A stretch of 64,000 bases of DNA. It comes from an uncultured Planctomycetaceae bacterium. GTDB lineage: Bacteria > Planctomycetota > Planctomycetia > Gemmatales > Gemmataceae. Shown here in pieces: positions 2,746 through 53,727 of this stretch. The notes under the pieces are model-generated. The model saw only the letters and a list, made by a program, of their open reading frames with translations, made no database searches and was not told where the DNA came from. The position numbers were made by a program, and so were the translations under genes. The DNA lies in assembly GCA_963823075.1 (NCBI GenBank), contig CAWGKE010000001.1, positions 1,395,868-1,459,867 of the forward strand, given 5' to 3'. The first letter of the stretch is position 1; every line of letters starts with the position of its first letter.

Positions 2746-3509
2746 TGCTTGAAACCCTCGGCCGTCTCTCCCACTTCGCCTGGCGCTCTCTGCTGGTGCT
2801 GCCGCACGCGCTGTTGCGGCCGCGCGAGCTGGCCGCTCAACTGTTCCACGTCCTGATGGGATCGCTGCCGCTGGCGCTCACCGCCGGGGCGGCCATCGGC
2901 GTCGTCGTGTGGCTGCACCTGCGCGGCGCCCTGGAAGCTGTCGCCGGGCCGGGGGCCGTCGTCTATCTGCCGCAGGCGCTCGCGCTGGCCGTCGTGCTGG
3001 AGCTGGCGCCGCTCGCCGCCGGACTCGTCGTGGCCGGACGCATGGGGGCCAGTCTCGGCGCCGGCCTCGGGGCCATGACCCTCACCGAACAAATCGACGC
3101 ACTGGAGGCGCAGGGCCTCTCCCCCATGCGCGAATTGACGGCCCCCCGCGTCCTCGCCTGCATGATCTCGCTGCCGCTGCTCACCGTGTTCATTTCCTTC
3201 ACCGCCCTCGCATCCGGCTGGCTGGCCGAGACGCTCGGCGGGACCCTCACCGGCCGGCAGTTCTTCAACGAGTCACTGCGCGTCCTCACGTTGCACGACG
3301 TCCTCCCGGCCGTGTTCAAGACGGTCGTGTTCGGCTGGCTGATCGGTGCGTCCGGCTGCTACTTCGGCATGAGCGCCCGCGGCGGCGCCGAGGGCGTCGG
3401 CAAGGCGGCCACCGCCGGCGTCGTGGCGTCGCTGTTCCTCGTGCTGGTTTCCGACGTGGCGCTCGTCAAGCTCATCCAGATCGTCACGGCCTGGGCGCCG
3501 CATCTGTGA
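2745..3509 (+). CDS. mlaE: MlaE-family ABC transporter permease
   Basis: 254-aa polytopic membrane protein with the MlaE/YrbE signature region (LTEQIDALEAQGLSPMRELTAPRVLA). Confidence 0.8.
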   Translation: MLETLGRLSHFAWRSLLVLPHALLRPRELAAQLFHVLMGSLPLALTAGAAIGVVVWLHLRGALEAVAGPGAVVYLPQALALAVVLELAPLAAGLVVAGRMGASLGAGLGAMTLTEQIDALEAQGLSPMRELTAPRVLACMISLPLLTVFISFTALASGWLAETLGGTLTGRQFFNESLRVLTLHDVLPAVFKTVVFGWLIGASGCYFGMSARGGAEGVGKAATAGVVASLFLVLVSDVALVKLIQIVTAWAPHL

Positions 3510-39467: not shown

Positions 39468-40069
39468 TCATTTCGCCTGGCGTGACAGTCGCTTTTCCAG
39501 CAGCGTTTTGACCTTGCCGCGCATGGTCTGGAAGTAGCAGAGGCTGGCCCGGAGCGACTGCTTGAGGTCGGCCAAGGTGTCGAACAGCCGGTTGTGCGTC
39601 GCCCGTCGCCGCAGCTTCTTCCAGAAACGCTCGATCGGGTTCAACGGGGGGCTATAACTGGGCAGACGCTTGAACTTCAGATGCGGGTACTCCGCCAGCG
39701 CCTGGTCCACCGGCTTGCCCCGGCGCCACGGCGCGGTGTCGATCCGCAGCACCACTTCCGGGTGCTTGTCCCGCGGGTACACCCGACCGACGTGGCGCAG
39801 GTGGTCCGCGAACGCCTCTTGCAGGCGCCGCGTCTTGCTCTGGCCCGTCCTCTTCTGGGCGGCCTTGGGGCTTTCCAGGGTGTTGCTGTGGACCGCCGCG
39901 CTGAGCAGGTTCACCACGGCGAAGACGTAGAGCAGGTCCTTGCAGTCGCGCGTCCCGACCGTCGGCCGGTGTCCTTTGACCCCCCGCGTTGCACCCAGCG
40001 TTGGCGCCATCGGGAAGCGGGCCTCGTCCTGACTCAGCAAGACGATTTCACCCGCCGTCGCTTTTTTTC
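39468..40069 (-). pseudogene. IS630-family transposase DDE-domain fragment (3' part of a copy split by later insertions)
   Basis: YSPPLNPIERFWKKLRRRA motif. The N-terminal residues of the annotated ORF read through the TIR of the adjacent intact IS630. It pairs with orfA at 41480-41992. Confidence 0.7.
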
Positions 40070-41239
40070 CTAGTGCAGGGCCAAGCAAGGTCTTGCCTGT
40101 GCGCAGCTGGAAGCGAACAATGAGGTATGAAACCACCCATCTTTGTTCGCACGCTCAGCGCCGCCGAACGGCTGCGGTTGCAGGCGGGGCGGCGCGCTGC
40201 CGACGCCTTTACCGTCCGCCGTTGCCAGATTCTCCTGGCCAGCGCCGCCGGTCTGCGGCCGCCGCAGATCGCCCGCAACTTGGGCTGCGCCGCGCGCACC
40301 GTTCACTACGCCCTGCACGCCTTCCGGCGCGAGGGACTGGACTGTCTCCAGGAGAAATCCTCTCGGCCGCATTCGGCCCGGCCGTTCCTGGACCAACGCC
40401 ACGCCGACGCCCTGAAGGACCTGCTGCATCACAGTCCCCGTCTGTTCGGCAAACCCACCGGCCTGTGGACCCTGGAGCTGCTCGCCGAGGTCTGCCACGG
40501 CAAGGGCTGGACCCCCCGGCGACTCAGCGGCGAAGCCGTTCGCCTGGCCCTGAAACGCCTGAACATCGGCTGGCGGCGTGCCAAGCACTGGATCACCAGC
40601 CCCGACCCGGCCTACGCGCGAAAGAAAGAAGCCCGCGATCGCTTGATCCGTCTGGTCGAGAGTCACCCGGACTGGGTCTTGGGTTTCCGGGACGAGACCT
40701 GGTGGAGCCGCCTCGCCCTGCCGCGTTGTCGCGCCTGGACCGGCGCCGAACCGCTCCGCCTGGTGGAACGGAACACCGACCGCACCGATCCGGACCCCAA
40801 GGCGCTGTGCTGCTACGGCTTGCTGCGGCAGGACACGGACCAGATGCTGCTGCGTTTCGTCGAGGGTCGGCCGGTGAGTCAGGTCACCGAGGACTACCTG
40901 GCCTGGGTGTGCGAGCAGCTGGCTGCGGAGGGCAAGAAGGCGCTGCTGCTGGTCTGGGACAACGCCTCCTGGCACGCCAGTAAGCGGGTGCGGTCCTGGA
41001 TCAAGGATCACAACCGACGGGCCAAGGCGGAGGGTGGGGTGCGGATCCTCGCCTGCCCGTTGCCGATCAAGGCGCCGTGGCTCAACGCGATCGAGCCGAA
41101 GTGGGTCCACGGCAAGAAGGCCATCGTGGAGCCGGATCGGAAGCTGACGGCGCAGGAGACCAAGGAGCGCGTCTGTCTGTATTACGGCTGCGAGCAAGTG
41201 GAACCCCTTGAGCAAAAGGCCGCTTGATCCTGCACTAGG
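40069..41239 (+). mobile_element. IS630-family insertion sequence, apparently intact
   Basis: TIRs CCTAGTGCAGGGCC... at 40069 and ...GATCCTGCACTAGG at 41239. It carries a 366-aa transposase. Inserted after a T7 run. Confidence 0.8.
40127..41227 (+). CDS. IS630-family transposase
   Basis: N-terminal HTH/wHTH. DDE region DETWWS...WDNASWH...LPIKAPWLNAIE. Confidence 0.85.
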   Translation: MKPPIFVRTLSAAERLRLQAGRRAADAFTVRRCQILLASAAGLRPPQIARNLGCAARTVHYALHAFRREGLDCLQEKSSRPHSARPFLDQRHADALKDLLHHSPRLFGKPTGLWTLELLAEVCHGKGWTPRRLSGEAVRLALKRLNIGWRRAKHWITSPDPAYARKKEARDRLIRLVESHPDWVLGFRDETWWSRLALPRCRAWTGAEPLRLVERNTDRTDPDPKALCCYGLLRQDTDQMLLRFVEGRPVSQVTEDYLAWVCEQLAAEGKKALLLVWDNASWHASKRVRSWIKDHNRRAKAEGGVRILACPLPIKAPWLNAIEPKWVHGKKAIVEPDRKLTAQETKERVCLYYGCEQVEPLEQKAA

Positions 41240-41483
41240 ATGGCAAACTTAACTTGAGAGGCCCCGAAAACGGCCTGTTCTTGAACTGGGCGGCCCAGGA
41301 AAACGCCAGAAATCGCTTGTCCGCCGAGGGTCTCAAGTTGAGTTTGCCGTCCTAGTTTTTTCCTAGGATGGCAAACTTAACTTGAGAGGCCCCGAAAACG
41401 GCCTGTTCTTGAACTGGGCGGCCCAGGAAAACGCCAGAAATCGCTTGTCCGCCGAGGGTCTCAAGTTGAGTTTGCCGTCCTAG
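41236..41483. mobile_element. Tandem pair of ~120-bp palindromic MITEs (TIR CTAGGAYGGCAAACTTAACTTGAGA)
   Basis: Copies at 41236-41355 and 41363-41483, each internally inverted-repeat and separated by a T-run. Two more copies at 43096-43340. Confidence 0.85.
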
Positions 41484-41992
41484 TTTTTTTTTAACTCGGC
41501 AATGTCTTGGCGGGCTTGGGCTTGTTTCTCGGGGTTGCCGCGCAGGTAGCGGTAGGTCGGGCGATACAGGCGGATATCGATCTTGGCACAGAAACGCTGC
41601 ACGGCGCTGCGGGATGTCTGGATGCCTCTGGTCTTGAGCAGATAGTCGGCCAACTCCTCATGGGTCCAGTTGACCCGGTCCAGACCGCACGCGGCCGGCC
41701 CGTTGATGACCCAGCGTTTGACCTCGCCGGCCAGGTGGGTCGGGATTTTGGCTGGCGCCCCCTTCGGTTTGCGGGGGCGCAGACCGTCCAGACCCCGATC
41801 GAGGTAGACGTTGAGCCAGCGTTGGACGGTGCGTGGGGTGATGGCCAGGTCCTGGGCGATGTCCTGGTGGGGTCGATGGCGGCAGGCCAAGCGGATGATG
41901 GGGATGCGATCGCGGTACTTCGGGTCGGTCTCGTGGCGGAAGGCCTGGTCGAGACGTTGGCTTTCCTCCTGGGGCAGTCGGATGCGAATCAC
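41480..41992 (-). pseudogene. IS630-family transposase N-terminal (HTH) fragment, truncated by the MITE insertion
   Basis: 170 aa, homologous to the N-terminal half of the intact IS630 transposase. The stop TAG lies within the MITE TIR. Confidence 0.7.
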
Positions 41993-42080
41993 GTCAGGTC
42001 TGGTTCCTCCTTCGGGTCACTCGACCCCATTCATTCTACGCAACCAGACAAGCCTATCGGGTTTGTGTATCAGTAGAAAG

Positions 42081-42168
42081 CGGAGAGGGAGGGATTCGAA
42101 CCCTCGGTAGACTTGTCGTCCTCACCGGTTTTCGAGACCGGCCCGATCGGCCGCTCCGGCACCTCTCC
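42081..42168 (-). tRNA. tRNA-Ser(CGA)
   Basis: Acceptor GGAGAGG/CCTCTCC. Anticodon loop CTCGAAA. Long variable arm. T-arm GAGGGTTCGAATCCCTC. Confidence 0.8.
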
Positions 42169-42521
42169 GAGAAACCGCACAAACCCGTCCTCCCCCGCAT
42201 TCTAGCAGCCCAGCCCCCTGCCGACAATTTCCCCTCCTCCCCGCCGCTTGCATCCGGCTCGAAGGACGTGGGACAGGATTCCGATCCTGTCCGGTTGGGT
42301 CAGGATTGGAATCCTGACCCACGGCCCAATAGTGTTCGGCACGGCGTTTGAGAGGGACGTAAGTGGCGATCCCCCCGTGGTTAACGGCAAATGAGCGGGT
42401 GAGCCTCGACCAATTGTTCCAATGGGCACCCATCAGCGCAACTCTCAATTGCCATTAGACTTATGCGCTTCCTCAAATCGTGTGCCGAACACTATTGCCC
42501 ACGGCCCCATGTCGTGCTCCT

Positions 42522-43906
42522 AAGCAAGTACGCAAAAGTGTTTTGACAAAGTTCATTTGAGCCAGAAGGTGTCGCTGAACACGCCGGACGTATGCAGAGC
42601 CTCTTGGTTCGACAAGCCGCCCAGGTAGTCGAGGAAGCGGTTCACCTGTTCCTCGATCGGCTCGTATTGCTTGTTGGCGCTGATCACGTCCTTGCCCTGG
42701 CCCCACAGCGTATCCATCGGGTTCAACTCCGGGGACCTCTTGGGCAGCCACAGCAGCGTCATCCCCTCCGCCTTGGCCAGCGATGCCTTGGCCGTGTGGC
42801 TGCGATTCTCATCCACGAGCATGGCCACGTGCCAGCCCCGGTAACGCCCGCGTACTTCCTCCAGGAACGCCTGGAAGTCGATGCTCTGCCCCTTCGCCCT
42901 CGGCAGGAAGAGCCGCGCCCCGGTGCGCAGGTTCATCGCCCCGAAGACGACCCGCCGCGCGTTCCAGCCGCTCAGCAGCACCGGCGCGGTTTCCCCTCGC
43001 CGCGCCCACCCCGCCCGCAGAGGCGGGAAGAGCAGCAGGTCGGTTTCGTCCTGGGCCAGCACCACGCTTCGCCTGGGCAAGGCCAGGATCTGCCGCTTGA
43101 TCCGCCGTTTTTTTCTAGGACGGCAAACTTAACTTGAGACCCCGGCGGAAAAGCGATTTCTGGCGTTTTCCTGGGCGGCCCAGTCAAGAAAAGGCCGTTT
43201 TCCCGGGGCTCTCAAGTTAAGTTTGCCATCCTAGTTTTTTTCTAGGATGGCAAACTTAACTTGAGACCCCGGCGGACAAGCGATTTCTGGCGTTTTCCTG
43301 GGCCGCCCAGTAAGAACAGGCCGTTTTCGGGGCCTCTCAAGTTGAGTTTGCCGTCCTAGTTTTTTCTCGCGCAGCGGGTCCGGCGCGAGGGCGTAACGCG
43401 GCCGCTTCCAAACGAAGTCCCACTCGGCCAGCTGCCGGCGGATGGTGTCGCAGGAGGCCTCCCGGCTCGTGGCGACGGCCAGGGCCTCGCGGAGCAGCGG
43501 CGCCGTCCAGCTTACGTGGGGGAAGCCGACGTCCGGGGGGGAGCAGTCCAGCAGCGACTCCAGCAGTTCCAGGTCGTCCTCGTCCAGCAGTCGGGGTCGC
43601 CCGGGGCGTTCGCCCTCCGCAAGAGTATCGGGCGGAGGCGTCGTGGCGAAGGCGGCCAGCCAGTTGTGGACCGTCTGGCGGGTCACGCCGAGCATCCGGG
43701 CGATGTCGGCGGCAGACCGGCCTTGGTCGAATTCGAGAACGGCCAGAGTGCGGCGGAAGAGGCGAACGTCGCAGGCCTCCCGCAGCTGTCGCCGCAATCG
43801 CCGCCGTTGCCAGGATGTCAGATGGAGTCGATCCATGGTACTTCCCCCTCTACCCGAGAGGATACCAATAAACCGGGTGTCAAATTACTTTTGCGTACCT
43901 GCTTAC
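42522..43906 (-). mobile_element. IS630-family element whose transposase gene is split by a tandem MITE pair
   Basis: TIRs AAGCA(A/G)GTACGCAAAAGT..TTTGAC at both ends. orfA 43380-43836 (HTH) and orfB 42553-43080 (DDE: SQDE.., LPKRSPELNPMD) are separated by the MITEs at 43096-43340. Confidence 0.7.
43096..43340. mobile_element. Tandem pair of ~120-bp palindromic MITEs (same family as 41236-41483, opposite orientation)
   Basis: Copies at 43096-43215 and 43223-43340, flanked and separated by T-runs. Confidence 0.85.
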
Positions 43907-44819
43907 AGGCTCTGACAAAACCTACTTTTGGCATGGAATTTGCGCTATGGCACAATGGCCCTTCTTTCTCAGAGGTTGGTGTCATGGCGAATGCACATTT
44001 ACCCGATGCCTTCTATGACCTGGTTTCGCACCATCTGCCCCCCGAAAAGCCTGTCGGTCCCAAGGGCGGTCGCCCACCAATCCCCCACCGCATAGCCCTG
44101 AAAGTGATCTGGTTCGTCCTCGTCTCCGGCTGCCGGTGGGAAGACGTGCCGCACGAGATGGGCTGCTCCGGACGCACCGCCCACCGGCGGCTGCCTTGTG
44201 GGAGGAACTGGGCGTCTGGGACCGTCTGCACGCCGATCTGCTCCGCCTGCTGCGGCAGGACGACAAGCTCGACCCCGCTCTGGTCATCGTAGACGGCGTG
44301 ATCGTGCGGGCCTTCGGCGGCGGCGAGGACACCGGCCCCAGCCCCGTGGACCGGGCGAAAAAAGGCTCCAAACACACCTTGATGGTGGATCGACACGGTG
44401 TGCCGCTGGCCATCCACACGGTGGCAGCCAACGCCAGCGATCACGGGCAGATCATCCCCATCGTGCTGGACTTCCCGCAGGTCGGCGGCAAAGTGGGCCG
44501 ACCGAAGGAACTACCCGACGAGTTGTACGCCGATGCGGGTTACGACAGCGAGGCGACCCGCTGGCTGCTGGCCTGGCTGGGGATCGAGGCCAAGATCAAC
44601 AAGCGGCGGTCGGTGCACGGGAGCGGGTTGGGCAAGGTACGCTGGGTAGTGGAGCGGACCATCAGTTGGCTCAAGGGACTGAGGCGAATGCGCATCCGCT
44701 ACGACCGCCTCAAGGTGGTCCAGGAGGCGTGGAATACGCTGGCAGCGAGTGTCATTTGCTTTCGCATTTGGCATCATGACTTCGCTGTTGCCTCATAGGG
44801 TTTTGTCAGAGCCTGTTAG
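43907..44819 (+). mobile_element. IS5-family (IS427/ISL2-like) insertion sequence
   Basis: TIRs ACAGGCTCTGACAAAACC / GGTTTTGTCAGAGCCTGT. The transposase is split over two frames (43985 to about 44195, then 44136-44798) with the DDE region DGVIVRA...YADAGYDSE. Confidence 0.75.
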
Positions 44820-46318
44820 TATTACAGCGCAGGGCGCTTTGCTCTTCTACGCGAAGGGAGAAAACGGTACAAGACGAACTCCTTCGCCCGCAGTCCGCCG
44901 TAGGAGGGACCGTTCATGGACGGGCAACAATTGCGGGCGCTCAAGCCTGAGTTGGATCGTTTTTTGGACCGGTACGCGCCCCTGTTCGGCCGTGACGAGA
45001 ATCAGGCCCATGCACGCCGCTTCGTTCAAGGACTGCTGCACAAGGGTGAACGTCGCAACATCGAGAACATCGCCGAGGCTCTCGACGGCGGTCCCGTGCG
45101 TTCCTTGCAGGCGTTTGTGACCACCGGCGCCTGGCACGACCAGGCCCTGCTGGCCGAGTTGCGCCGGGACGTGCTGGCGGTTCTCGCGGACGAGGACGCC
45201 GTCTGGAACTCGGACGAGACCGGCTTCCCCAAGAAGGGCGCCAAGTCGGTGGGGGTCAAGCGGCAATACTCCGGCACGCTCGGTCGCACGGATAATTGTC
45301 AGATCGGCGTGTTCGCCAACTACTGCTCGTCCAAGGGGCACACCTTCATGGACCGCCGCTTATTCCTGCCGGAGGAGTGGGCCGACGACGCGGGGCGACG
45401 CGCCGAGGCGGGCGTCCCCGAGGACGTGCTCTTTCGCACCAAACCAGCGTTGGCGCTGGAGATGGCAGCCAGGCCGTCGCCGAAGGCATCCCCTTCCGCT
45501 GGGTCGGCGGCGACAGTGTCTACGGCGACAACCCGACCTTCGTGCAGGGCGTGCGTGCGTTGGGCAAGTGGTATGTGTTGGACATCGCCTGCGACACGCG
45601 GGTATGGACCGAGCCACCCCAGGTCATCCCGGCGGCAGAGCGGCCGCGTCCGCGGCGTGGCCGTCCACCCACCACGCCGTTGGTGGTCGGCGAGCGGCGA
45701 CGTGTGGACGAGATCGCGGCGGCCCTTGCCGGCGACGGCCTGGCGACGCGTCGTCGTGGGCGAAGGCAGTCAGGGGCCGCGAATGTACGAATACGCTGAG
45801 GTGGCCGTGTGGTTGTGTGAGGACGAGTTGCCGGGACCGCCCGAGCGTTTGTTGGTGCGGCGTTCGCTGGGGCAGTCGGCGGAGTGGAAGTACCACCGCG
45901 CTCACGCGGCGGCGACCGTGTCGCTGGAGAAGCTGGCGCAGGTGCGTGGCACGCGCTGGACGATCGAGGAAGACATCCAGTGTGGCAAGGGGGAGTGTGG
46001 CCTGGACGAGTACGAGACGCGTGGCTGGGTGGGCTGGCACCATCACACGGCGTTGTCGCTGTTGGCGTTGGCGTTCTTGGTGCTCCAGAAGCAGCGGTTG
46101 GGGGAAAAAAAGAGCCGCAGATGACCGTCCCGGAAGTGCGCGCGTTGCTGACGCATCTGCTGGAAGTGCGCGTGTGGGACGACGACGACATCCTGGGGTG
46201 GTCGGAGTGGCGGCGCGAACGCAACCGCCGGGCCTCGGAAAGTCATCGCAAGCGGCGGCTCGCCGAACTGCGGCCGCCGCGAAGTAAGAAAAAGAAGCCT
46301 GCGCTGTAATATTAGTTC
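44820..46318 (+). mobile_element. IS701-family insertion sequence; transposase carries three frameshifts
   Basis: TIRs TAGTATTACAGCGCAGG / CCTGCGCTGTAATATTAG. Transposase 44916-46309 with RQYSGTLGRTDNCQIGVF and WTIEEDIQCGKGECGLDEY. Frame switches near 45470 and 45740, and at the A7 run near 46115. Confidence 0.75.
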
Positions 46319-47700: not shown

Positions 47701-47816
47701 GCCGATGGGCGACGGCGGCCGTGTTCGCCGCCGGAGGGGACAGCCGGCGGTCTGCGCTCCGAGGCAGCGAAGGTTCCGAACGTCTCTTCGGTCCTGACGC
47801 CTTTTCGGCCCGCGTC

Positions 47817-48033
47817 ACTTATCCTTCTCCTTGCCGCTCTTGTCGGGAAGTTGGATCTCCTTTTGATCGGCGAGGAAGCGGGCGTACTCCATAACCGCCT
47901 TGAGCGGCTCGACGGTATCGACCGGCTTGACCAGCGTGGGGTCGTAGTCGTGCCGCTGGACGGTTTCGTCGAGTTCCCAGTACAAGTGCTTGCCGACGCT
48001 GTCGCCCTTGCGGGCCTTGCCGAAGGAGATTAA
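47817..48033 (-). pseudogene. 3' fragment of a host gene, truncated at the low-GC island boundary
   Basis: The minus-strand frame reads ...LISFGKARKGDSVGKHLYWELDETVQRHDYDPTLVKPVDTVEPLKAVMEYARFLADQKEIQLPDKSGKEKDK* with no upstream continuation beyond 48033. Confidence 0.5.
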
Positions 48034-48036
48034 TGG

Positions 48037-48078
48037 TGTCAGATCATATTTATACTATATATTATGATCTTACACCAG
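48037..48078. repeat. AT-rich palindrome at the island junction
   Basis: GTGTCAGATCATAT..ATTATGATCTTACAC. A local GC drop in otherwise ~70% GC DNA. Confidence 0.6.
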
Positions 48079-48349
48079 TTTCCCGGACCGACGCCGCCCC
48101 TGATTGCCCTGGATGGCGAGGGCCAGCCGTAGGAATTGGCTTCGTTCGGCAAAACCATCCGTCGGGGCCGGACGAACGCCGTTGCAACCCCCGGCCGGAC
48201 GGCGGTAAGCGGGAAACGGCAAGAAAACCGCATGTTTTCCCGTGACGGGCGCCCGGAGGCGGCCGCCGGCCTCGGCGGCGGGATCGCCGGAAAATGTCCA
48301 AAATGCTGATGATTTAGGAAAAAAATGCACGGGTCGGAGGTCACACGTC

Positions 48350-48877
48350 ATGGGCGGGACGCTCTCGACACGGTGGAACGGACACACGAAACGCGACACC
48401 GTGGAGGACGGCCGGACGCTGGACCTCGGGGAAATGGCGCGGAAGGGTTGCTTCGTGCCCTGGTATAGCGGCCGGTGTACCTGGTACAGCGGCGAGACGG
48501 AAACCGCCTCGATCGGTTACACGGTTCGCCCGGCGGACGTGGGCCTCGTCCTCGTGCTGTCCTACAACATGGTTCGGACCAAGCAGGAAGTGGAGGTCCG
48601 CATCCCCCTCGAAACGACGCGCCCGCACTTCGGCGGGGTCCGTTGGTGGGGTCGCTGCCCGTGCGGCCGGCGGGTGAGGAAGCTATACCTCCCGCCCGGA
48701 GCTGGTCGTTTCGCGTGCCGAACGTGCCACGGTCTGACCTACGAATCCGTTCAGTCTCACGACAAGCGCGTGGACGCCTTGCGGCGGAACCCGGACCTGA
48801 TCGAGCGCATCCTGGATGACGCTGCGGCGAATCCTCTTTGCTCCAAGCTGCTCATCGCGCTCAAGGCGTTGCGATGA
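48350..48877 (+). CDS. Hypothetical protein with a C4 zinc-finger-like motif
   Basis: ATG at 48350 (MGGTLSTRW). CPCG...CRTCH motif. About 175 aa. Confidence 0.45.
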   Translation: MGGTLSTRWNGHTKRDTVEDGRTLDLGEMARKGCFVPWYSGRCTWYSGETETASIGYTVRPADVGLVLVLSYNMVRTKQEVEVRIPLETTRPHFGGVRWWGRCPCGRRVRKLYLPPGAGRFACRTCHGLTYESVQSHDKRVDALRRNPDLIERILDDAAANPLCSKLLIALKALR

Positions 48878-49002
48878 GGGCCAGGACCGCGCGCCGCCGT
48901 GCGTCGCCGGGTGGGCCGCGGCGTGGCCGGTTGGCGCGGCGCCAACAGGCCGCTCCACGGCACCGAGAGCCGGTATTCAAGGGCATGGACGACGCGCCGA
49001 GG

Positions 49003-49062
49003 CGGGGGAATTCCGGAACCTATTTCGTGCTTGCAAACCGCCAGAATTTCGGCGAGGATGAC
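49003..49062 (+). repeat. Island repeat R1 (GGAATTCCGGAAC...AAACCGCCAGAATTTCGGCG)
   Basis: Nearly identical to the reverse complement of R4 (50939-51000). Related to R2 (49852-49912, reverse complement) and R3 (50402-50464). Confidence 0.75.
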
Positions 49063-49297
49063 AATACTACGGGCCCTATGCAAATGAGGCTGAGGTTCTC
49101 GCGCCCTACGAAATACCGCTGGAGGACATCGCTGGCTATCAACAAGTTGGCCCGGGAGAGAACCTTACGGGCCCCGTCACACCATTCCCATATTTCAACC
49201 CATGAAGACTTCGCATTCACTAGAGTTGGTCAGCCCTGAAGGGTCTAGTCGATGCGAACTTCAGCATACGACGAAACCTCCTTGGCGCTTACTGTTC

Positions 49298-49801
49298 ATG
49301 CACAAGACGCTAGGAAACCTACTTTGCGAGTCTAGCGATCTATTTGACGCACTCTGTAAGTTGCGTTTGGTCCTAGAGAGGCACAATTATAAGATTCTGT
49401 GCAACGGCGGCCGCATCGACGCCTGGCCATCAAACATGGCCAGGGACATGGGAGGCGGGAAAAAGGTCTATATTACTCAGATTGGTAAGCGTGCCCAGTT
49501 TGACGACTTGGTGCCATTATTTGGACCGACAGAAGGCGTGCTAGTTGCCACTGTGCAGGTACAGATCGCGCACCATCGGGAGTGGATAAGAAGCATCATG
49601 AGCGAATTGAATACTCCACCGCCAGAAGCGCTTAAGGAAGCGAAGCTCCGTCCCAACGGATGGGTCTATAAGATTGAGGGTGACTACGGGCCGCAAGACA
49701 GCGTGCCTGTCGAAGCGATTGTTGGAGCATGGAAAGTCGATTTCGAAGGCAACATTGTTGGAGACTTTGTCCCCAACCCAAAGTATAAACCGAGACAGTA
49801 A
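49298..49801 (+). CDS. Hypothetical protein in low-GC (~48%) DNA, likely horizontally acquired
   Basis: ATG at 49298 (MHKTLGNLL). Clean codon structure. Flanked by the R1/R2 repeats. Confidence 0.5.
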   Translation: MHKTLGNLLCESSDLFDALCKLRLVLERHNYKILCNGGRIDAWPSNMARDMGGGKKVYITQIGKRAQFDDLVPLFGPTEGVLVATVQVQIAHHREWIRSIMSELNTPPPEALKEAKLRPNGWVYKIEGDYGPQDSVPVEAIVGAWKVDFEGNIVGDFVPNPKYKPRQ

Positions 49802-49851
49802 TCTTCCGCGGGTTTCTTCAGATGCCCATCTGCGGTGCGTTGCAAGCCTGT

Positions 49852-49912
49852 TGTGGCCTCTACGATATTTTGGCGGTTTTCCCGGCCGAAATCGGTTCCG
49901 GAATTCGGCCCG
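49852..49912 (-). repeat. Island repeat R2 (reverse orientation)
   Basis: Its reverse complement, CCGGGCCGAATTCCGGAACCGATTTCGGCC..AAAACCGCCAAAATATCGTAGAGGCCACAA, matches R3. Confidence 0.7.
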
Positions 49913-50401
49913 GGTACGCTTGGCGCCGGGGCCGCCCGCGCTCACCGGCTCCGCCCCCTCGACGCCTTCCGAAGCGCCGCCCTGCCCCCTTCCCTTCGCC
50001 CGCCGCGGCCCGCGCCGCGCCGCCGGACCCGGCCGCGTCCGGCGCTGATTCTACCCGGCCGCCGACGGCGGGGATAGCAGAATCGGCGACCCTGCGCGCA
50101 GGCCCCTGAACGGGCGTCGAGGCGCCGCTCGGGATCGCAACGCCCGACGACCGAACGGCAGGCCGACGCCGCGCCCGATCCGTCGCCCGGTGGCGGCTGA
50201 AGAAAGGGACGCGGCGTCCGATTTTTCGCTGGCAAAGGCGCAGTGGCGGACCTATAATGGCGGTCACCCTCATGGCCGGCCTCGCGTGCGCCGGAACCCT
50301 CCACGAGCGACAGGGCGCACGGCTGGGCCGGCCAAAGCCGCGGCGCATCCAGCGGCCGCGGGCGCGTGACCCGCGGCGTGTTCTCTTTGTACCCGGAGGG
50401 A

Positions 50402-50464
50402 GGCGAATTCCGGAACCAATTACGCGGAAAAAGGCCGCCAGAATTTTGTAGAGGCCACAGCATG
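50402..50464 (+). repeat. Island repeat R3
   Basis: GGCGAATTCCGGAACCAATTACGCGG..GCCGCCAGAATTTTGTAGAGGCCACAG. Confidence 0.7.
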
Positions 50465-50594
50465 TGCGAGAACTGGGCAAAGGTGTACCAGTACATGGAG
50501 AGCGTGGGAAAAGGGGGAGCAAGCGCGGGCCCGCGCCAACCTCATGGTGAAAATCGCCGGGTTGCTGAAATGAAATACAAAGAAAGGGTGTCAA

Positions 50595-50855
50595 ATGGAC
50601 CAGCTTGTTAGGCAGCGATTTCTTGTCAAGAATGCCTTCGCGCAGTCAATTGAGCTGCGAATCGAGCCGATAACCGAGAAAGTACTTATGCCGGCGGGCG
50701 CGGTGTTTCAATTGGAAGCGGATTATGACGGCCGAGTTCTGCCCAGAATCGACTTCGCCGACGGATCAGTCACCGTCTACGCTATCGTGCATTTAATTTC
50801 ATCTGTTGCGGACGATAATTCTCTTACTCTTCTGTGGTCGCTTGATCCCCCGTAA
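50595..50855 (+). CDS. Small hypothetical protein in low-GC DNA
   Basis: 86 aa, ~50% GC, located between R3 and R4. Confidence 0.35.
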   Translation: MDQLVRQRFLVKNAFAQSIELRIEPITEKVLMPAGAVFQLEADYDGRVLPRIDFADGSVTVYAIVHLISSVADDNSLTLLWSLDPP

Positions 50856-50938
50856 ACAGAGATAAGAAGTAGGGATAAGCGGGGATAAGGTCGGGGCTGT
50901 GGGTCCCGAAAAACTCGTCGTCCGGTTCGACGCAGGCG

Positions 50939-51000
50939 ATGTCATCCTCGCCGAAATTCTGGCGGTTTACAAGCACGAAATAGGTTCCGGAATTCCCTCC
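50939..51000 (-). repeat. Island repeat R4 (reverse orientation; inverted partner of R1)
   Basis: TGTCATCCTCGCCGAAATTCTGGCGGTTTACAAGCACGAAATAGGTTCCGGAATTCC. Confidence 0.75.
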
Positions 51001-51039
51001 CTTCGGACGGCGGGCTGAACCCCGCCGGAAGGAGGAGTC

Positions 51040-52700
51040 ATGTCCGTTTCCTTCCGCCCGCCCGACCCCCCGGGCCGCCACGTCCCCGCCGGGACGGCCG
51101 ACCCGACCTACCCCGCCCCCGACCCGCCGCAGCCCTGCGGCGGGCCGCCCCCCGCCCCGCCGGCCTTCGCCGAAGGGGGGCCGGAATGCGACGACTGCCC
51201 GGCCGATGACGACCTCGACGGGCCGCCCCCGGAAGCCCCTGGGCTGTCGGGACGTGTTCGCCCACCCGACCGCCGACCCGGACGCCGCCTGGCGCGGCCG
51301 CCGGAGGCCCCCGCCCCGCCCCTGACCGCCGAACAGCGTCTGCTGCTGCTGGACGCCTGGCGGCGCAGCGGCCTGCCCGCCGGCGACTTCGCCCCCCTCG
51401 TCGGCGTCTCCAAACACACCCTCTACGACTGGAAACGCCGCTTCGAGGCCGAGGGGCCGGCGGGCCTGCAAGACAAGCCCCGCGGCTCCCCGCGCGGCAG
51501 CCGCCTGCCCGAGGTCACCAAGCGCGCCATCCTGATGATGAAGCAGGACAACCCGGATTGGGGCTGCGAGCGCATCAGCGCCCTGCTGCTCCGCGGCCCC
51601 GCACTGCCCGCCAGCCCCCAGGCCGTCGCCCACGTCCTGCACGAGGCCGGGTACGAGACCGAGGAAGCGCCCACGCACCCTCACGCGCCGCCCGTGCATC
51701 ATTTCGAGCGCGCCCGTCCCAACCAGTTGTGGCAGACCGACTTGTTCACCTTCGTCCTGAAGCGGCAGAACCGGCGCGTCTACCTCGTCGCCTTCCTGGA
51801 CGACCACAGCCGCTTCCTGGTCGGCTACGGCCTGCACGCCAGCCAGTCGGCCGCCCTGGTGCTGGAGGTCTTCCGCGCCGCCCTGGCGAGCTACGGGGCG
51901 CCGGAGGAGGTGCTGACCGACAACGGCAGCCAGTACGTGACCTGGCGCGGCAAGAGCGCCTTCAGCAAGGAGCTGGAGAAGCGGGGGGTGCGCCAGGTGG
52001 TCGCCGCGCCGCGGCACCCGCAGACGCTGGGCAAGATCGAGCGGTTCTGGGGGACGCTGTGGCGGGAGTGCGTCGAGGCGGCGGTGTTCCTCGACCTGGG
52101 GGACGCCCAGCGCCGCATCGGCCTGTTCATCGACCATTACAACTTCCAACGGCCGCACCGGGGGATCGGTGGTCTGGTCCCGGCCGACCGCTTCTTCGGG
52201 GCGGCCCCCGAGGTGCTGCGGACGCTGCAGGCGCGGGTGGCGGGCAACGCCCTGGCGCTGGCGCGGCACGGCACGCCGCGGGAGCCGTTCTACCTGACGG
52301 GGCAGGTGGGGGGCAAGCCGTTCAGCCTGCACGCCGAGGGGGAGCGGGTGATTCTGACGGGGGCGGAGGGGACGCGGAAGGAGATCGACCTGACTCCGCC
52401 CGCGCCGGCGGCCGCTGCCCCGCCGCCTCCCGCGGCACCGCCGGCCGTGGAGCAACGTTCCGCGCCGGCGGCGGCCGGGCCGTCGGCGTTGCCGCAGCCG
52501 GTCTGTCCGCAGGGCGTGGTCGCGGGCATCCACCCCGGCGACGTTCAGGACCCTCCGCCGCCGCTCGACTCTACTCCCCTTGGGGAGATCACGGACTTCG
52601 AGCAGCTCCAGCATGGGCCTGAGGGTCGCCGGCTTGCGCACCGCTGTAGAGACATTGGGGGGGGCTTTCGTGGCTTTCTTGCGCGGCGCCATGGGGCGAT
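51040..52700 (+). CDS. IS481-family (rve integrase-core) transposase; no stop codon before the next gene
   Basis: HTH region LLLLDAWRRSGLPAGDFAPLVGVSKHTLYDWKRRF. DDE core WQTDLFTF...LDDHSRFLV...TDNGSQY. The frame stays open until 53727. Confidence 0.7.
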
Positions 52701-52857
52701 CTCCGGTTGCGGACTCGGCGAAGGGACTGAGAGAGGAAGCTGCCCGACCCGCCGGGCGGACGCAAGCGAAATCCGAAAAATCAGGCCCTCCCTCGCTCTT
52801 GCGATCCGGTATAATCGCCGATTGGAGGTCGGCGCATCCGGCGAAGGGGGACGACTC

Positions 52858-53727
52858 ATGCGACGCAGCATCGGCGTGGGCGCGGCGGTCCTGGCGTTGA
52901 CCGCGGCCCTGGTTCGGGCGGACGATCCCGCGGACAAGGCGGCCGCGCGCAAGCAGGCGGCGGAGGCCGCCTGGACGACGGCAGGCGGCGGCGAATTCTC
53001 TACTTTGGAGACGGACCACCTGCTGATCTACGCCCCCAAGGACTGGGACAAGCGACTCAAGGAGTTGGGGACGCTGCTGGAAAAGCAGTACGCCCAGGCG
53101 AAGTCGGCGCTGGGTTACGACGACAAAACGGACCCGTTGCCGGCCAAAGCGACGGTCTTCGTCTTTGGGGAGCGCGAGCAGTTCACCGCGTTCGTGCGGC
53201 GGGTCGATAAGCAGCGGCTGGACTCCGACGACGCGGCCAGCTTCAACGGAGAGGACGACGCGCTGCACGTCGCGGCCGGCCCGGCGCGGGCGAAGTCGGA
53301 CCTCGGTCAGGAGGGCGAGACGGCGGAGCAGCTGGCGGCGCTGATGCTGGCCCGCAAGGCCGGCCTCAAGACCATCCTGCCCGGCTGGCTGTCGGACGGC
53401 TTCGGGCGGGCCACCTACTACCACGCCGTCGGCGGGCCGAAAACGGCGGCGGATCGACGCGAGGCGGCCGCCTGGGCCGCCAAGGGCAGCGCCAAGGACG
53501 TGTGGAACGGCAACATCGACGCGGACAAGTCGGTGGTTCTGGAGGGCAGCCTGGCGGACTACTTCGCCTACGGACCCGGCGCCAGCAAGTTTGGGGAGCT
53601 GCTCAAGGGCTTCATGCCCGAGGAGAACGTCGCCCGGCAAACCACGGAGCACGCGCTGGACGCGGCCGGCCTGACGCCGGATCGCATCGAGAAGTCGTGG
53701 AAAGTCTGGGCGGCGGCGGCGAGGTAA
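52858..53727 (+). CDS. Secreted hypothetical protein
   Basis: Internal ATG at 52858, with the signal peptide MRRSIGVGAAVLALTAALVRA. About 289 aa. Confidence 0.5.
   Translation: MRRSIGVGAAVLALTAALVRADDPADKAAARKQAAEAAWTTAGGGEFSTLETDHLLIYAPKDWDKRLKELGTLLEKQYAQAKSALGYDDKTDPLPAKATVFVFGEREQFTAFVRRVDKQRLDSDDAASFNGEDDALHVAAGPARAKSDLGQEGETAEQLAALMLARKAGLKTILPGWLSDGFGRATYYHAVGGPKTAADRREAAAWAAKGSAKDVWNGNIDADKSVVLEGSLADYFAYGPGASKFGELLKGFMPEENVARQTTEHALDAAGLTPDRIEKSWKVWAAAAR

Follow-up and report, generated by a model that had tools for sequence, protein, structure and literature searches.

The region between about 48 and 51 kb of a 64,000-nucleotide stretch of DNA (the window) from an uncultured Planctomycetaceae bacterium (contig CAWGKE010000001.1) contains four copies, R1 to R4, of a repeat of ~60 bp that lie beside segments of low GC content. 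Sequence comparison identifies these repeats as terminal inverted repeats (TIRs) belonging to a family of IS481-related transposons common among planctomycetes. It is very probable that they serve as ends recognised by the transposase and that the region is an array of toxin/immunity cassettes broken by insertions, by an inverted second copy of the element and by later deletions. A preliminary description, made from the letters and the translated open reading frames (ORFs), had seen in the repeats nested inverted pairs suggestive of cassette-like capture of foreign genes, or of capture mediated by miniature inverted-repeat transposable elements (MITEs). The region is most probably the ordinary debris of mobile elements, and there is no need to assume a new system of cassette capture.

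The presence of the four repeats was confirmed by pairwise matching, by counting a conserved box and with a profile of homologous ends (Table 1). In the pairwise comparison R1 and R4 were 94% complementary over 67 nt, and R2 and R3 were 76% complementary over 59 nt (49849-49907 against 50404-50462). The box GAATTCCGGAAC occurs exactly four times in the window, where ~0.3 chance matches would be expected with one mismatch allowed. A TIR profile built with nhmmer from 12 homologous ends and run over the 64 kb matched R1 to R4 and nothing else, with E values of 3e-16 to 6e-13 (R4 2.8e-16, R1 2.1e-14, R3 4.8e-13 and R2 5.9e-13). The pattern GAATTCCGGAAC-N18-CCGCCANAAT was found twice in 185,579 species genomes, from which the source species is evidently absent; both matches, in Tardiphaga and in an actinobacterium, were discarded as chance by the TIR profile (E 0.056 and 3.5). 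A scan of viral contigs for the repeat found nothing. A peptide that the repeats might encode (frame EFRN.FR..KPPEFRRG) was also dropped, its frame not being conserved in the homologous ends elsewhere.

The identity of the repeats comes from five full-length copies of the element in other planctomycete DNA, each of them bounded by a pair of inverted repeats homologous to those of the window. These copies are 3.75-4.2 kb long (3751-4229 bp) and run from the left repeat (IRL) through ~35 nt, the transposase gene (~500 aa), an overlapping small ORF and a second gene with helix-turn-helix (HTH) and rve domains to the right repeat (IRR). The second HTH and rve gene ends inside the IRR and is divided into two ORFs in some copies. 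Six contexts share the order tnp-orf2-orf3-rve. The tips of the IRLs begin TGTC..CGCCGAAAT and those of the IRRs TGTG..CTACG, the tip region of the IRR being one base shorter and the two types differing systematically over the first ~15 nt. Termini of the form TGT...ACA, which have been reported for IS481-related elements (PMC10045372), are seen in four of the five full-length copies, the right tip of L016 being less clear.

Further loci agree with this arrangement. A metagenome scan gave six loci with homologous transposase DNA (L007-L012). In L012, as in the separately described locus L015, a repeat like R4 precedes the transposase ATG, with the orientation and roughly the spacing seen in the window, and the similarity of both loci to the window begins exactly at the 5'-TGTC. 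Homologous IRLs are also present in L008, L010, L011, L016, L017 and the Telmatocola locus L013, and in L010 and L011 one identical element, starting at the TGT, sits in two different flanks. Since the repeats bound both ends of the full-length copies and precede the transposase, they are the TIRs of this transposon, and their position there implies that they would be the sites of transposase binding and cleavage. The preliminary suggestion that the repeats act as binding or recombination sites is borne out in the sense that they are probably ends recognised by the transposase.

Table 1. Features of the region in the window (position 1 is its first letter) and the full-length copies used for comparison (positions in the respective loci).
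Feature	Coordinates	Strand	Remarks
R1	48997-49063	-	solo IRL-type TIR; tip 5'-TGTCATCC at 49063, facing right
R2	49852-49916		IRR-type TIR, tip at 49852
R3	50393-50459		IRR-type TIR, tip at 50459
R4	50940-51006	+	IRL of the transposase-carrying copy; tip 5'-TGTCATCC at 50940
Non-autonomous MITE-like element	49852-50459	.	bounded by IRR-type R2 and R3; 608 bp, 71.5% GC
Putative ADP-ribosyltransferase (ART) toxin gene tail	49065-49205	+	last 46 codons and stop (YYGPYANEAEVLAP...YFNP*); open frame
ORF199, predicted immunity gene	49202-49801	+	TriX-type (residues ~18-135), ~52% GC, intact, orphan
ORF36 (cassette 2)	50463-50573	+	
ORF86 (cassette 2)	50595-50855	+	
IS481-type DDE (rve) transposase gene	51040-52588	+	3'-truncated
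5' end of a minus-strand gene	52589-52692	-	~35 codons, MAPRKKATKAPP...LELLEVRDLP; from translation
Small ORF	47815-48033	-	59% GC; annotated as 56 aa from TTG 47985; frame open up to the palindrome
Imperfect AT-rich palindrome	48034-48077	.	TGGTGTCAGATCATA...TATGATCTTACACCA; 27% GC
175-aa gene, CxxC...CxxC	48350-48877	+	intact; 67% GC, host-like
Full-length copy, L010	56-3930		
Full-length copy, L008	243-4225		
Full-length copy, L016	9901-13789		
Full-length copy, L017	545-4773		
Full-length copy, Telmatocola L013	2902-6652		

The orientation of the ends in the window is the reverse of what the preliminary description had proposed. R1 aligns with the IRLs of L012 and L015 and is nearer to IRLs than to IRRs. 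Its similarity to R4 stops ~11-18 nt past the GAATTC box, and R1 is therefore a solo end; no transposon genes were found to its left, the body being missing beyond about 48990. R2 and R3 carry the signature TGTG...CTACG of the IRRs of full-length copies. The preliminary description had counted itself refuted if the repeats turned out to be ordinary IS481 TIRs or solo TIRs, and this is essentially what was found, with R4 an IRL and R1 a solo end. The tips (5'-TGT) of all four repeats point at low-GC DNA, the GC content being 67-76% on the body side and 52-53% on the tip side, and the low-GC DNA therefore lies outside every element. Nested pairs enclosing cargo are not what this polarity gives: R2 and R3 enclose 476 bp of non-coding DNA of 76% GC, and R1 and R4 are both left ends, the bodies of their elements extending outward in opposite directions.

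Between R2 and R3 lies an element without a transposase, whose ORFs have no family matches and whose interior has no homology to any part of the full-length element. The idea of a MITE thus holds in that R2 and R3 bound a MITE-like element, but this element holds no cargo. Its flanks, GCCTGT and GCATGT, match in 5/6 positions and possibly represent an imperfect 6-bp target duplication, the sole flank of this kind among the elements examined. A candidate sigma-70-like promoter (CTGGCA-18-TATAAT, 10/12) is found in the interior at 50229-50258 (+), and a GC hairpin with a T-rich tail at 50355-50377 (+), both reading toward R3 and cassette 2. A counterpart of 618 bp is present in L015 (555-1172), with a promoter-like site (9/12) at 945-973, an equivalent offset of ~406-418 nt from the left tip; the hairpin region is conserved in the local alignment of the two. 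Like MITEs and solo TIRs, these pieces comprise a short element lacking a transposase, with ends like those of the autonomous element and with a counterpart elsewhere, and, in R1, a lone end. They differ from MITEs in that both ends are of the IRR type, in that the interior is unrelated to the autonomous element, in the 5/6 match of the putative duplication and in that the window and L015 each show a single IRR/IRR element.

The preliminary description had also placed an IS481-type transposase 40 bp after R4, and the gene is indeed there, starting 33 nt past the repeat. The protein has an N-terminal HTH, with the Pfam domains rve, rve_3, HTH_32 and HTH_28, and its best NCBIfam match is NF033577 (IS481) over positions 1-284 of 284 (E 3e-65), followed by IS3 at 133.9 bits. 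It is one of a very large planctomycete family: among 8000 candidates scored against it, 4317 proteins reached E<=1e-30, and the best 120 of them listed are 69-91% identical; the best-known named member is from Telmatocola sphagniphila. A tblastn search of plasmids gave no match at 1e-40.

Homology of the transposase to its relatives, which are mostly ~420-550 aa long and followed by further genes, stops at residue ~516, at nucleotide ~52588 (52587 being the last position matched by tblastn). When the genes downstream of the L015 transposase were used as tblastn queries, the window gave no orf2 and no orf3/orf4, save that orf4 had a weak rve match within the transposase gene. A minus-strand ORF beginning MAPRKKATKAPPNVSTAVRKPATLRPMLELLEVRDLP runs into transposase antisense at ~52588, where the transposase homology ends, and since the two break off at the same junction this would be a deletion or rearrangement scar. 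The R4 copy appears to have kept its left end and transposase and to have lost its 3' part by deletion at this point. The 895-aa plus-strand ORF at 51040-53727 is an in-frame read-through chimera, in which the truncated transposase is followed by a spacer and then, from 52858, by a secreted protein.

The ~3-kb low-GC island of the preliminary description resolves into two separate segments. GC content is low from R1 to R2 (49064-49851, 52%) and from R3 to R4 (50460-50939, 53%), but not at 48078-48996 (67%) or in the R2-R3 interior (76%), the window as a whole being 67%.

In the first segment the 138 nt from the R1 tip to ORF199 form an open frame, the end of a gene cut at its 5' side by the tip, and its stop overlaps the start of ORF199 as ATGA. 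The encoded tail holds an E-x-E motif (ExE-like, NEAEV) 36 residues from its end, the cut falling 7 codons before the motif. It aligns colinearly with the C-terminus of an RHS/Scabin-like toxin in another locus (L005), with a Smith-Waterman score of 40 that is reached by 1.2% of shuffles; Pfam and PDB sequence searches with the 46 residues were negative. From this one pairwise alignment and the context, the identification of the fragment as the tail of a TreX-like ART toxin gene cut by R1 is moderately supported.

ORF199 matches the TriX structure 8s2m_A with an E value of 1.5e-8 by sequence and of 1.6e-22 with a family profile. Its AlphaFold (AF2) model has a predicted local distance difference test score (pLDDT) of 91.7, and in Foldseek four TriX chains were the only significant PDB matches (target template modelling (TM) score 0.86-0.91, root-mean-square deviation 1.8-2.0 Å). 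By both sequence and predicted fold, ORF199 encodes an immunity protein of the TriX type. The toxin neutralised by TriX is TreX, an Rhs-borne ART whose catalytic dyad is E-x-E (PMC11606950). Homologs of ORF199 are found in metagenomes, and one of them (P0006) starts 4 nt before the stop of the RHS-repeat/Scabin-like ART toxin gene of L005, so that a predicted immunity gene lies directly downstream of a toxin C-terminal domain in both places. The likeness to TreX-TriX of Xenorhabdus bovienii (PMC11606950) extends to an ExE-type ART tail upstream and to the overlap of stop and start. The window differs in that the toxin is destroyed and has no Rhs core, in the planctomycete host, and in an extra C-terminal SseB-like domain on ORF199. 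The N-terminal part of the NCBIfam model NF033532 ('type VII secretion system-associated protein') matches residues 153-198 (49658-49798; E 1.3e-10), and the C-terminal ~45 residues recur in shorter proteins, one with Pfam SseB (P0023); this part would be a separate mobile domain fused to the immunity domain. No Rhs core fragment (DPxGL region) is left before the toxin domain in the cassettes of the window, and no full-length rhs gene was found near the region.

The second segment holds ORF36 and ORF86, for which no homologs or families were found in Pfam, NCBIfam or PADLOC. Gene calls on a Logan contig from this organism include both of them. In Logan contig L003, which stems from the same or a nearly identical organism and is 99.7% identical to the window over 1.4 kb, two small indels (340-365 against window 50515-50540) shift the frame of ORF36, which argues against coding constraint on this ORF.

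A second case of the layout is provided by L015, which comes from a different assembly and whose transposase DNA is 84% identical to that of the window. Its IRR/IRR element is followed by an IRL at 3394 before the transposase, with low-GC genes between and beside them, the elements having 67-76% GC and the cassettes 48-53%. The order cassette, IRR-IRR element, cassette, IRL-transposase is thus common to the window and L015, with unrelated cargo. The genes that abut the L015 tips open with a truncated Rhs core, matching TIGR03696 over 19-76 (46.8 bits) and 46-76 (20.1 bits), and are orphan Rhs C-terminal (Rhs-CT) toxins cut at different points, as would be produced by element ends cutting into genes. 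Repeat-flanked units with other cargo, which the preliminary description had proposed to look for, therefore do occur in L015, but the repeats there cut into coding sequence. A lower GC content than the host's and, in L015, true orphan Rhs-CT genes beside the same repeats are features shared with Rhs orphan modules. Around the 618-bp element of L015 there is also a degenerate direct repeat (520-555 and 1173-1240; TACACYGG..GGCTGG..TGGARGA, with insertions in one copy), which sits inside Rhs-core-coding DNA; it possibly represents a long target duplication that has decayed, unless the YTG region was duplicated locally.

What the sequences show is which type of end each repeat is, how it is oriented and bounded, where genes are truncated and what the immunity protein is; the order of events and the past activity of the elements here are a matter of interpretation. 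The window would contain three decayed pieces of one transposon family: the R4 copy, the solo R1 and the R2-R3 element. The low-GC DNA left between them would be the remnant of an Rhs-type polymorphic-toxin cassette array, comprising a TreX-like ART toxin gene that lost its front part to R1, the orphaned TriX-type immunity gene that belonged to it and a second, two-ORF module. The MITE-like element would have inserted between the two cassette modules, and R1 and R4 are best read as belonging to two inverted copies that once flanked the segment.

Several observations weigh against this account or sit uneasily with it. Typical IS481 members in ISfinder have ~1-1.3 kb and a single transposase; the present element is three to four times as long and differs from them further in its three or four ORFs, including the second rve gene, and in TIRs of ~65 nt whose left and right forms are distinct. 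The transposase scores 220.6 bits against NF033577, just below the cut-off of 224. The TIR matches of the Telmatocola copy are individually weak (E 0.04-0.2) and convincing by position only, and R3 fits the IRR type only modestly better than the IRL type. The two IRR/IRR elements hardly align in their interiors (z 2.35), and apart from ends, length, the promoter-like site at the same offset and the hairpin they have little in common. The five full-length copies (L010, L008, L013, L016 and L017) show no direct target duplication of 3-30 bp when the sequence up to 6 nt from each tip is considered. IS481 members usually make such duplications, mostly of 6 bp and some of ~15 bp (PMC10045372). The basis of the comparison is one window and a handful of loci. 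What links the family to IS481, on the other hand, is the full-profile alignment of the transposase, its HTH, rve and rve_3 domains, the TGT...ACA ends and the existence of a non-autonomous derivative with matching ends.

Of the other explanations, the nearest to the preliminary idea of capture is a decayed composite transposon, in which the cassettes moved as cargo of two inverted copies, with R1 and R4 as inside ends, or of the MITE-like and the full-length element together, with their outermost tips facing outward. It partly overlaps the explanation by insertion and decay that is preferred here. As in Tn5 and Tn10, two inverted ends of the same element, R1 and R4, both IRLs and 94% identical, flank foreign-GC DNA, here of 1.9 kb; the element-cassette order shared with L015 in spite of unrelated cargo would fit, and polymorphic-toxin genes are neighbours in four of the seven transposase contexts examined, the window included. 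Unlike in those transposons, however, the left copy is down to 67 nt, the right copy is truncated and outer ends and duplications are absent, both outer parts for mobilisation thus being missing from the window. Moreover, the L015 tips cut Rhs cores at different points, like insertions into a pre-existing array, the element is carried in unrelated and toxin-free mobile-DNA contexts in L016 (type IV secretion system, resolvase) and L017 (integrase), and the layout is seen in two loci only. The genes are foreign-looking toxin/immunity cargo, as the preliminary description had it, but the geometry is reversed and no cargo lies inside a TIR-bounded unit, and it seems unlikely that the elements captured it.

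A more far-reaching version of the same idea must be considered speculative. Here the 608-618-bp IRR/IRR element and the 4-kb two-transposase element would form a composite vehicle that picks up, promotes and spreads toxin/immunity cassettes among planctomycetes, promotion coming from the outward-reading candidate promoter inside the small element. If true, this would explain both the shared layout with unrelated cargo and the frequency of toxin genes as neighbours.

Recombination sites of an integron-like or shufflon-like kind, at which a recombinase would exchange cassettes between inward-facing repeat pairs, are very improbable. Each low-GC module does lie between two inward-pointing repeats, and other cargo is found between homologous repeats in L015. 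The full-length elements, however, largely refute this reading: in five unrelated contexts the same repeats bound complete transposase-bearing elements of 3.75-4.2 kb with their tips outward. Where the repeats interrupt coding sequences, they do so at arbitrary positions. The ORFs scanned inside the region and near it include no tyrosine or serine recombinase and no integrase such as integrons have. Nor do the repeats resemble foldable attC-type sites: the preliminary description had proposed a check for RNA structure or att-like features, and no hairpin or att-like fold emerged, the RNA folds of the four repeats being no better than those of shuffles (z +1.4, -0.9, 0.0 and +1.1). Rfam searched over 40-54 kb (E<=1) gave tRNA-Ser and noise only, with no match in 48-51 kb.

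Least probable of all is that the repeats are regulatory modules, at which a dimeric regulator would bind the TTCCGGAA palindrome and switch the foreign genes next to it on or off. In favour of this, every repeat is directed into a cassette, an 8-bp palindrome is part of the conserved box and transposon ends often carry outward promoters, but the box is not conserved in the homologous ends elsewhere (L015, for instance, has GAATTCGCGCAC and L010 has AAGGAAT), no sigma-54 or sigma-70 promoter-like site is present in any of the four repeats, and transcription driven from R2 and R4 would run antisense to the cassettes.

The value of these results is mainly corrective, in that what appeared to be nested cassette boundaries are probably three decayed copies of one transposon family whose polarity had been misread. 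They also supply the ends and gene content of an abundant ~4-kb planctomycete IS481-related element which, as far as we checked, has not been described, together with a MITE-like derivative of it, and should be of use in annotating planctomycete mobile elements. An orphan TriX-type immunity gene that outlives its cut ART toxin would be an example of toxin/immunity decay in a phylum little studied for such systems.

At the left of the region the preliminary description had seen a host gene losing its 5' part at 48033, at an AT-rich palindrome taken as the boundary of the island. The palindrome exists, is unique in the window and forms a strong DNA hairpin (-12.3 kcal/mol, z -4.15), and it is absent from the fetched loci and the scanned viral contigs. 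The truncated host gene is unsupported, as the small minus-strand frame has a single match, a 56-aa protein (P0148) from the same genome, and no Pfam match. Nothing ties the palindrome to the transposon or makes it an island boundary. It lies in the divergent intergenic region between the small ORF and the intact 175-aa gene, and sigma-70-like hexamers at 48036-48065 overlap it; it is at least as likely to be an ordinary promoter/operator region as a truncation scar. The 175-aa protein is one of a very large uncharacterised family (6766 cluster representatives at E<=1e-3, typically 170-200 aa long, the alignments starting at residue 1) and has no match in Pfam, NCBIfam or PADLOC. Its gene has no similarity to the transposon in the other loci and does not appear to be part of it.

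Just upstream, at 40000-46200, there is a dense cluster of transposase genes and fragments, making 40-53 kb a mobile-element hotspot. The genes (for example 40127-41227, 41480-41992 (-), 42553-43080 (-), 43231-43836 (-), 44136-44798 and 44916-46124) look like IS630-, IS5- and IS701-type transposases. Matches to AAAACGCCAGAAATC at 41.3 and 43.2 kb were considered as further copies of the repeat and rejected, since they belong to an unrelated 128-nt element that has only a AAAACGCCAGAAATC-like word in common with R1 to R4. This 128-nt element has terminal inverted repeats of its own (CTAGGATGGCAAACTTAACTTGAGA...) and is present at 41235-41489 and 43107-43365 as two tandem pairs, mutually inverted, which bracket IS630-like transposase fragments and a tRNA-Ser(cga) gene at 42080-42168 (-).

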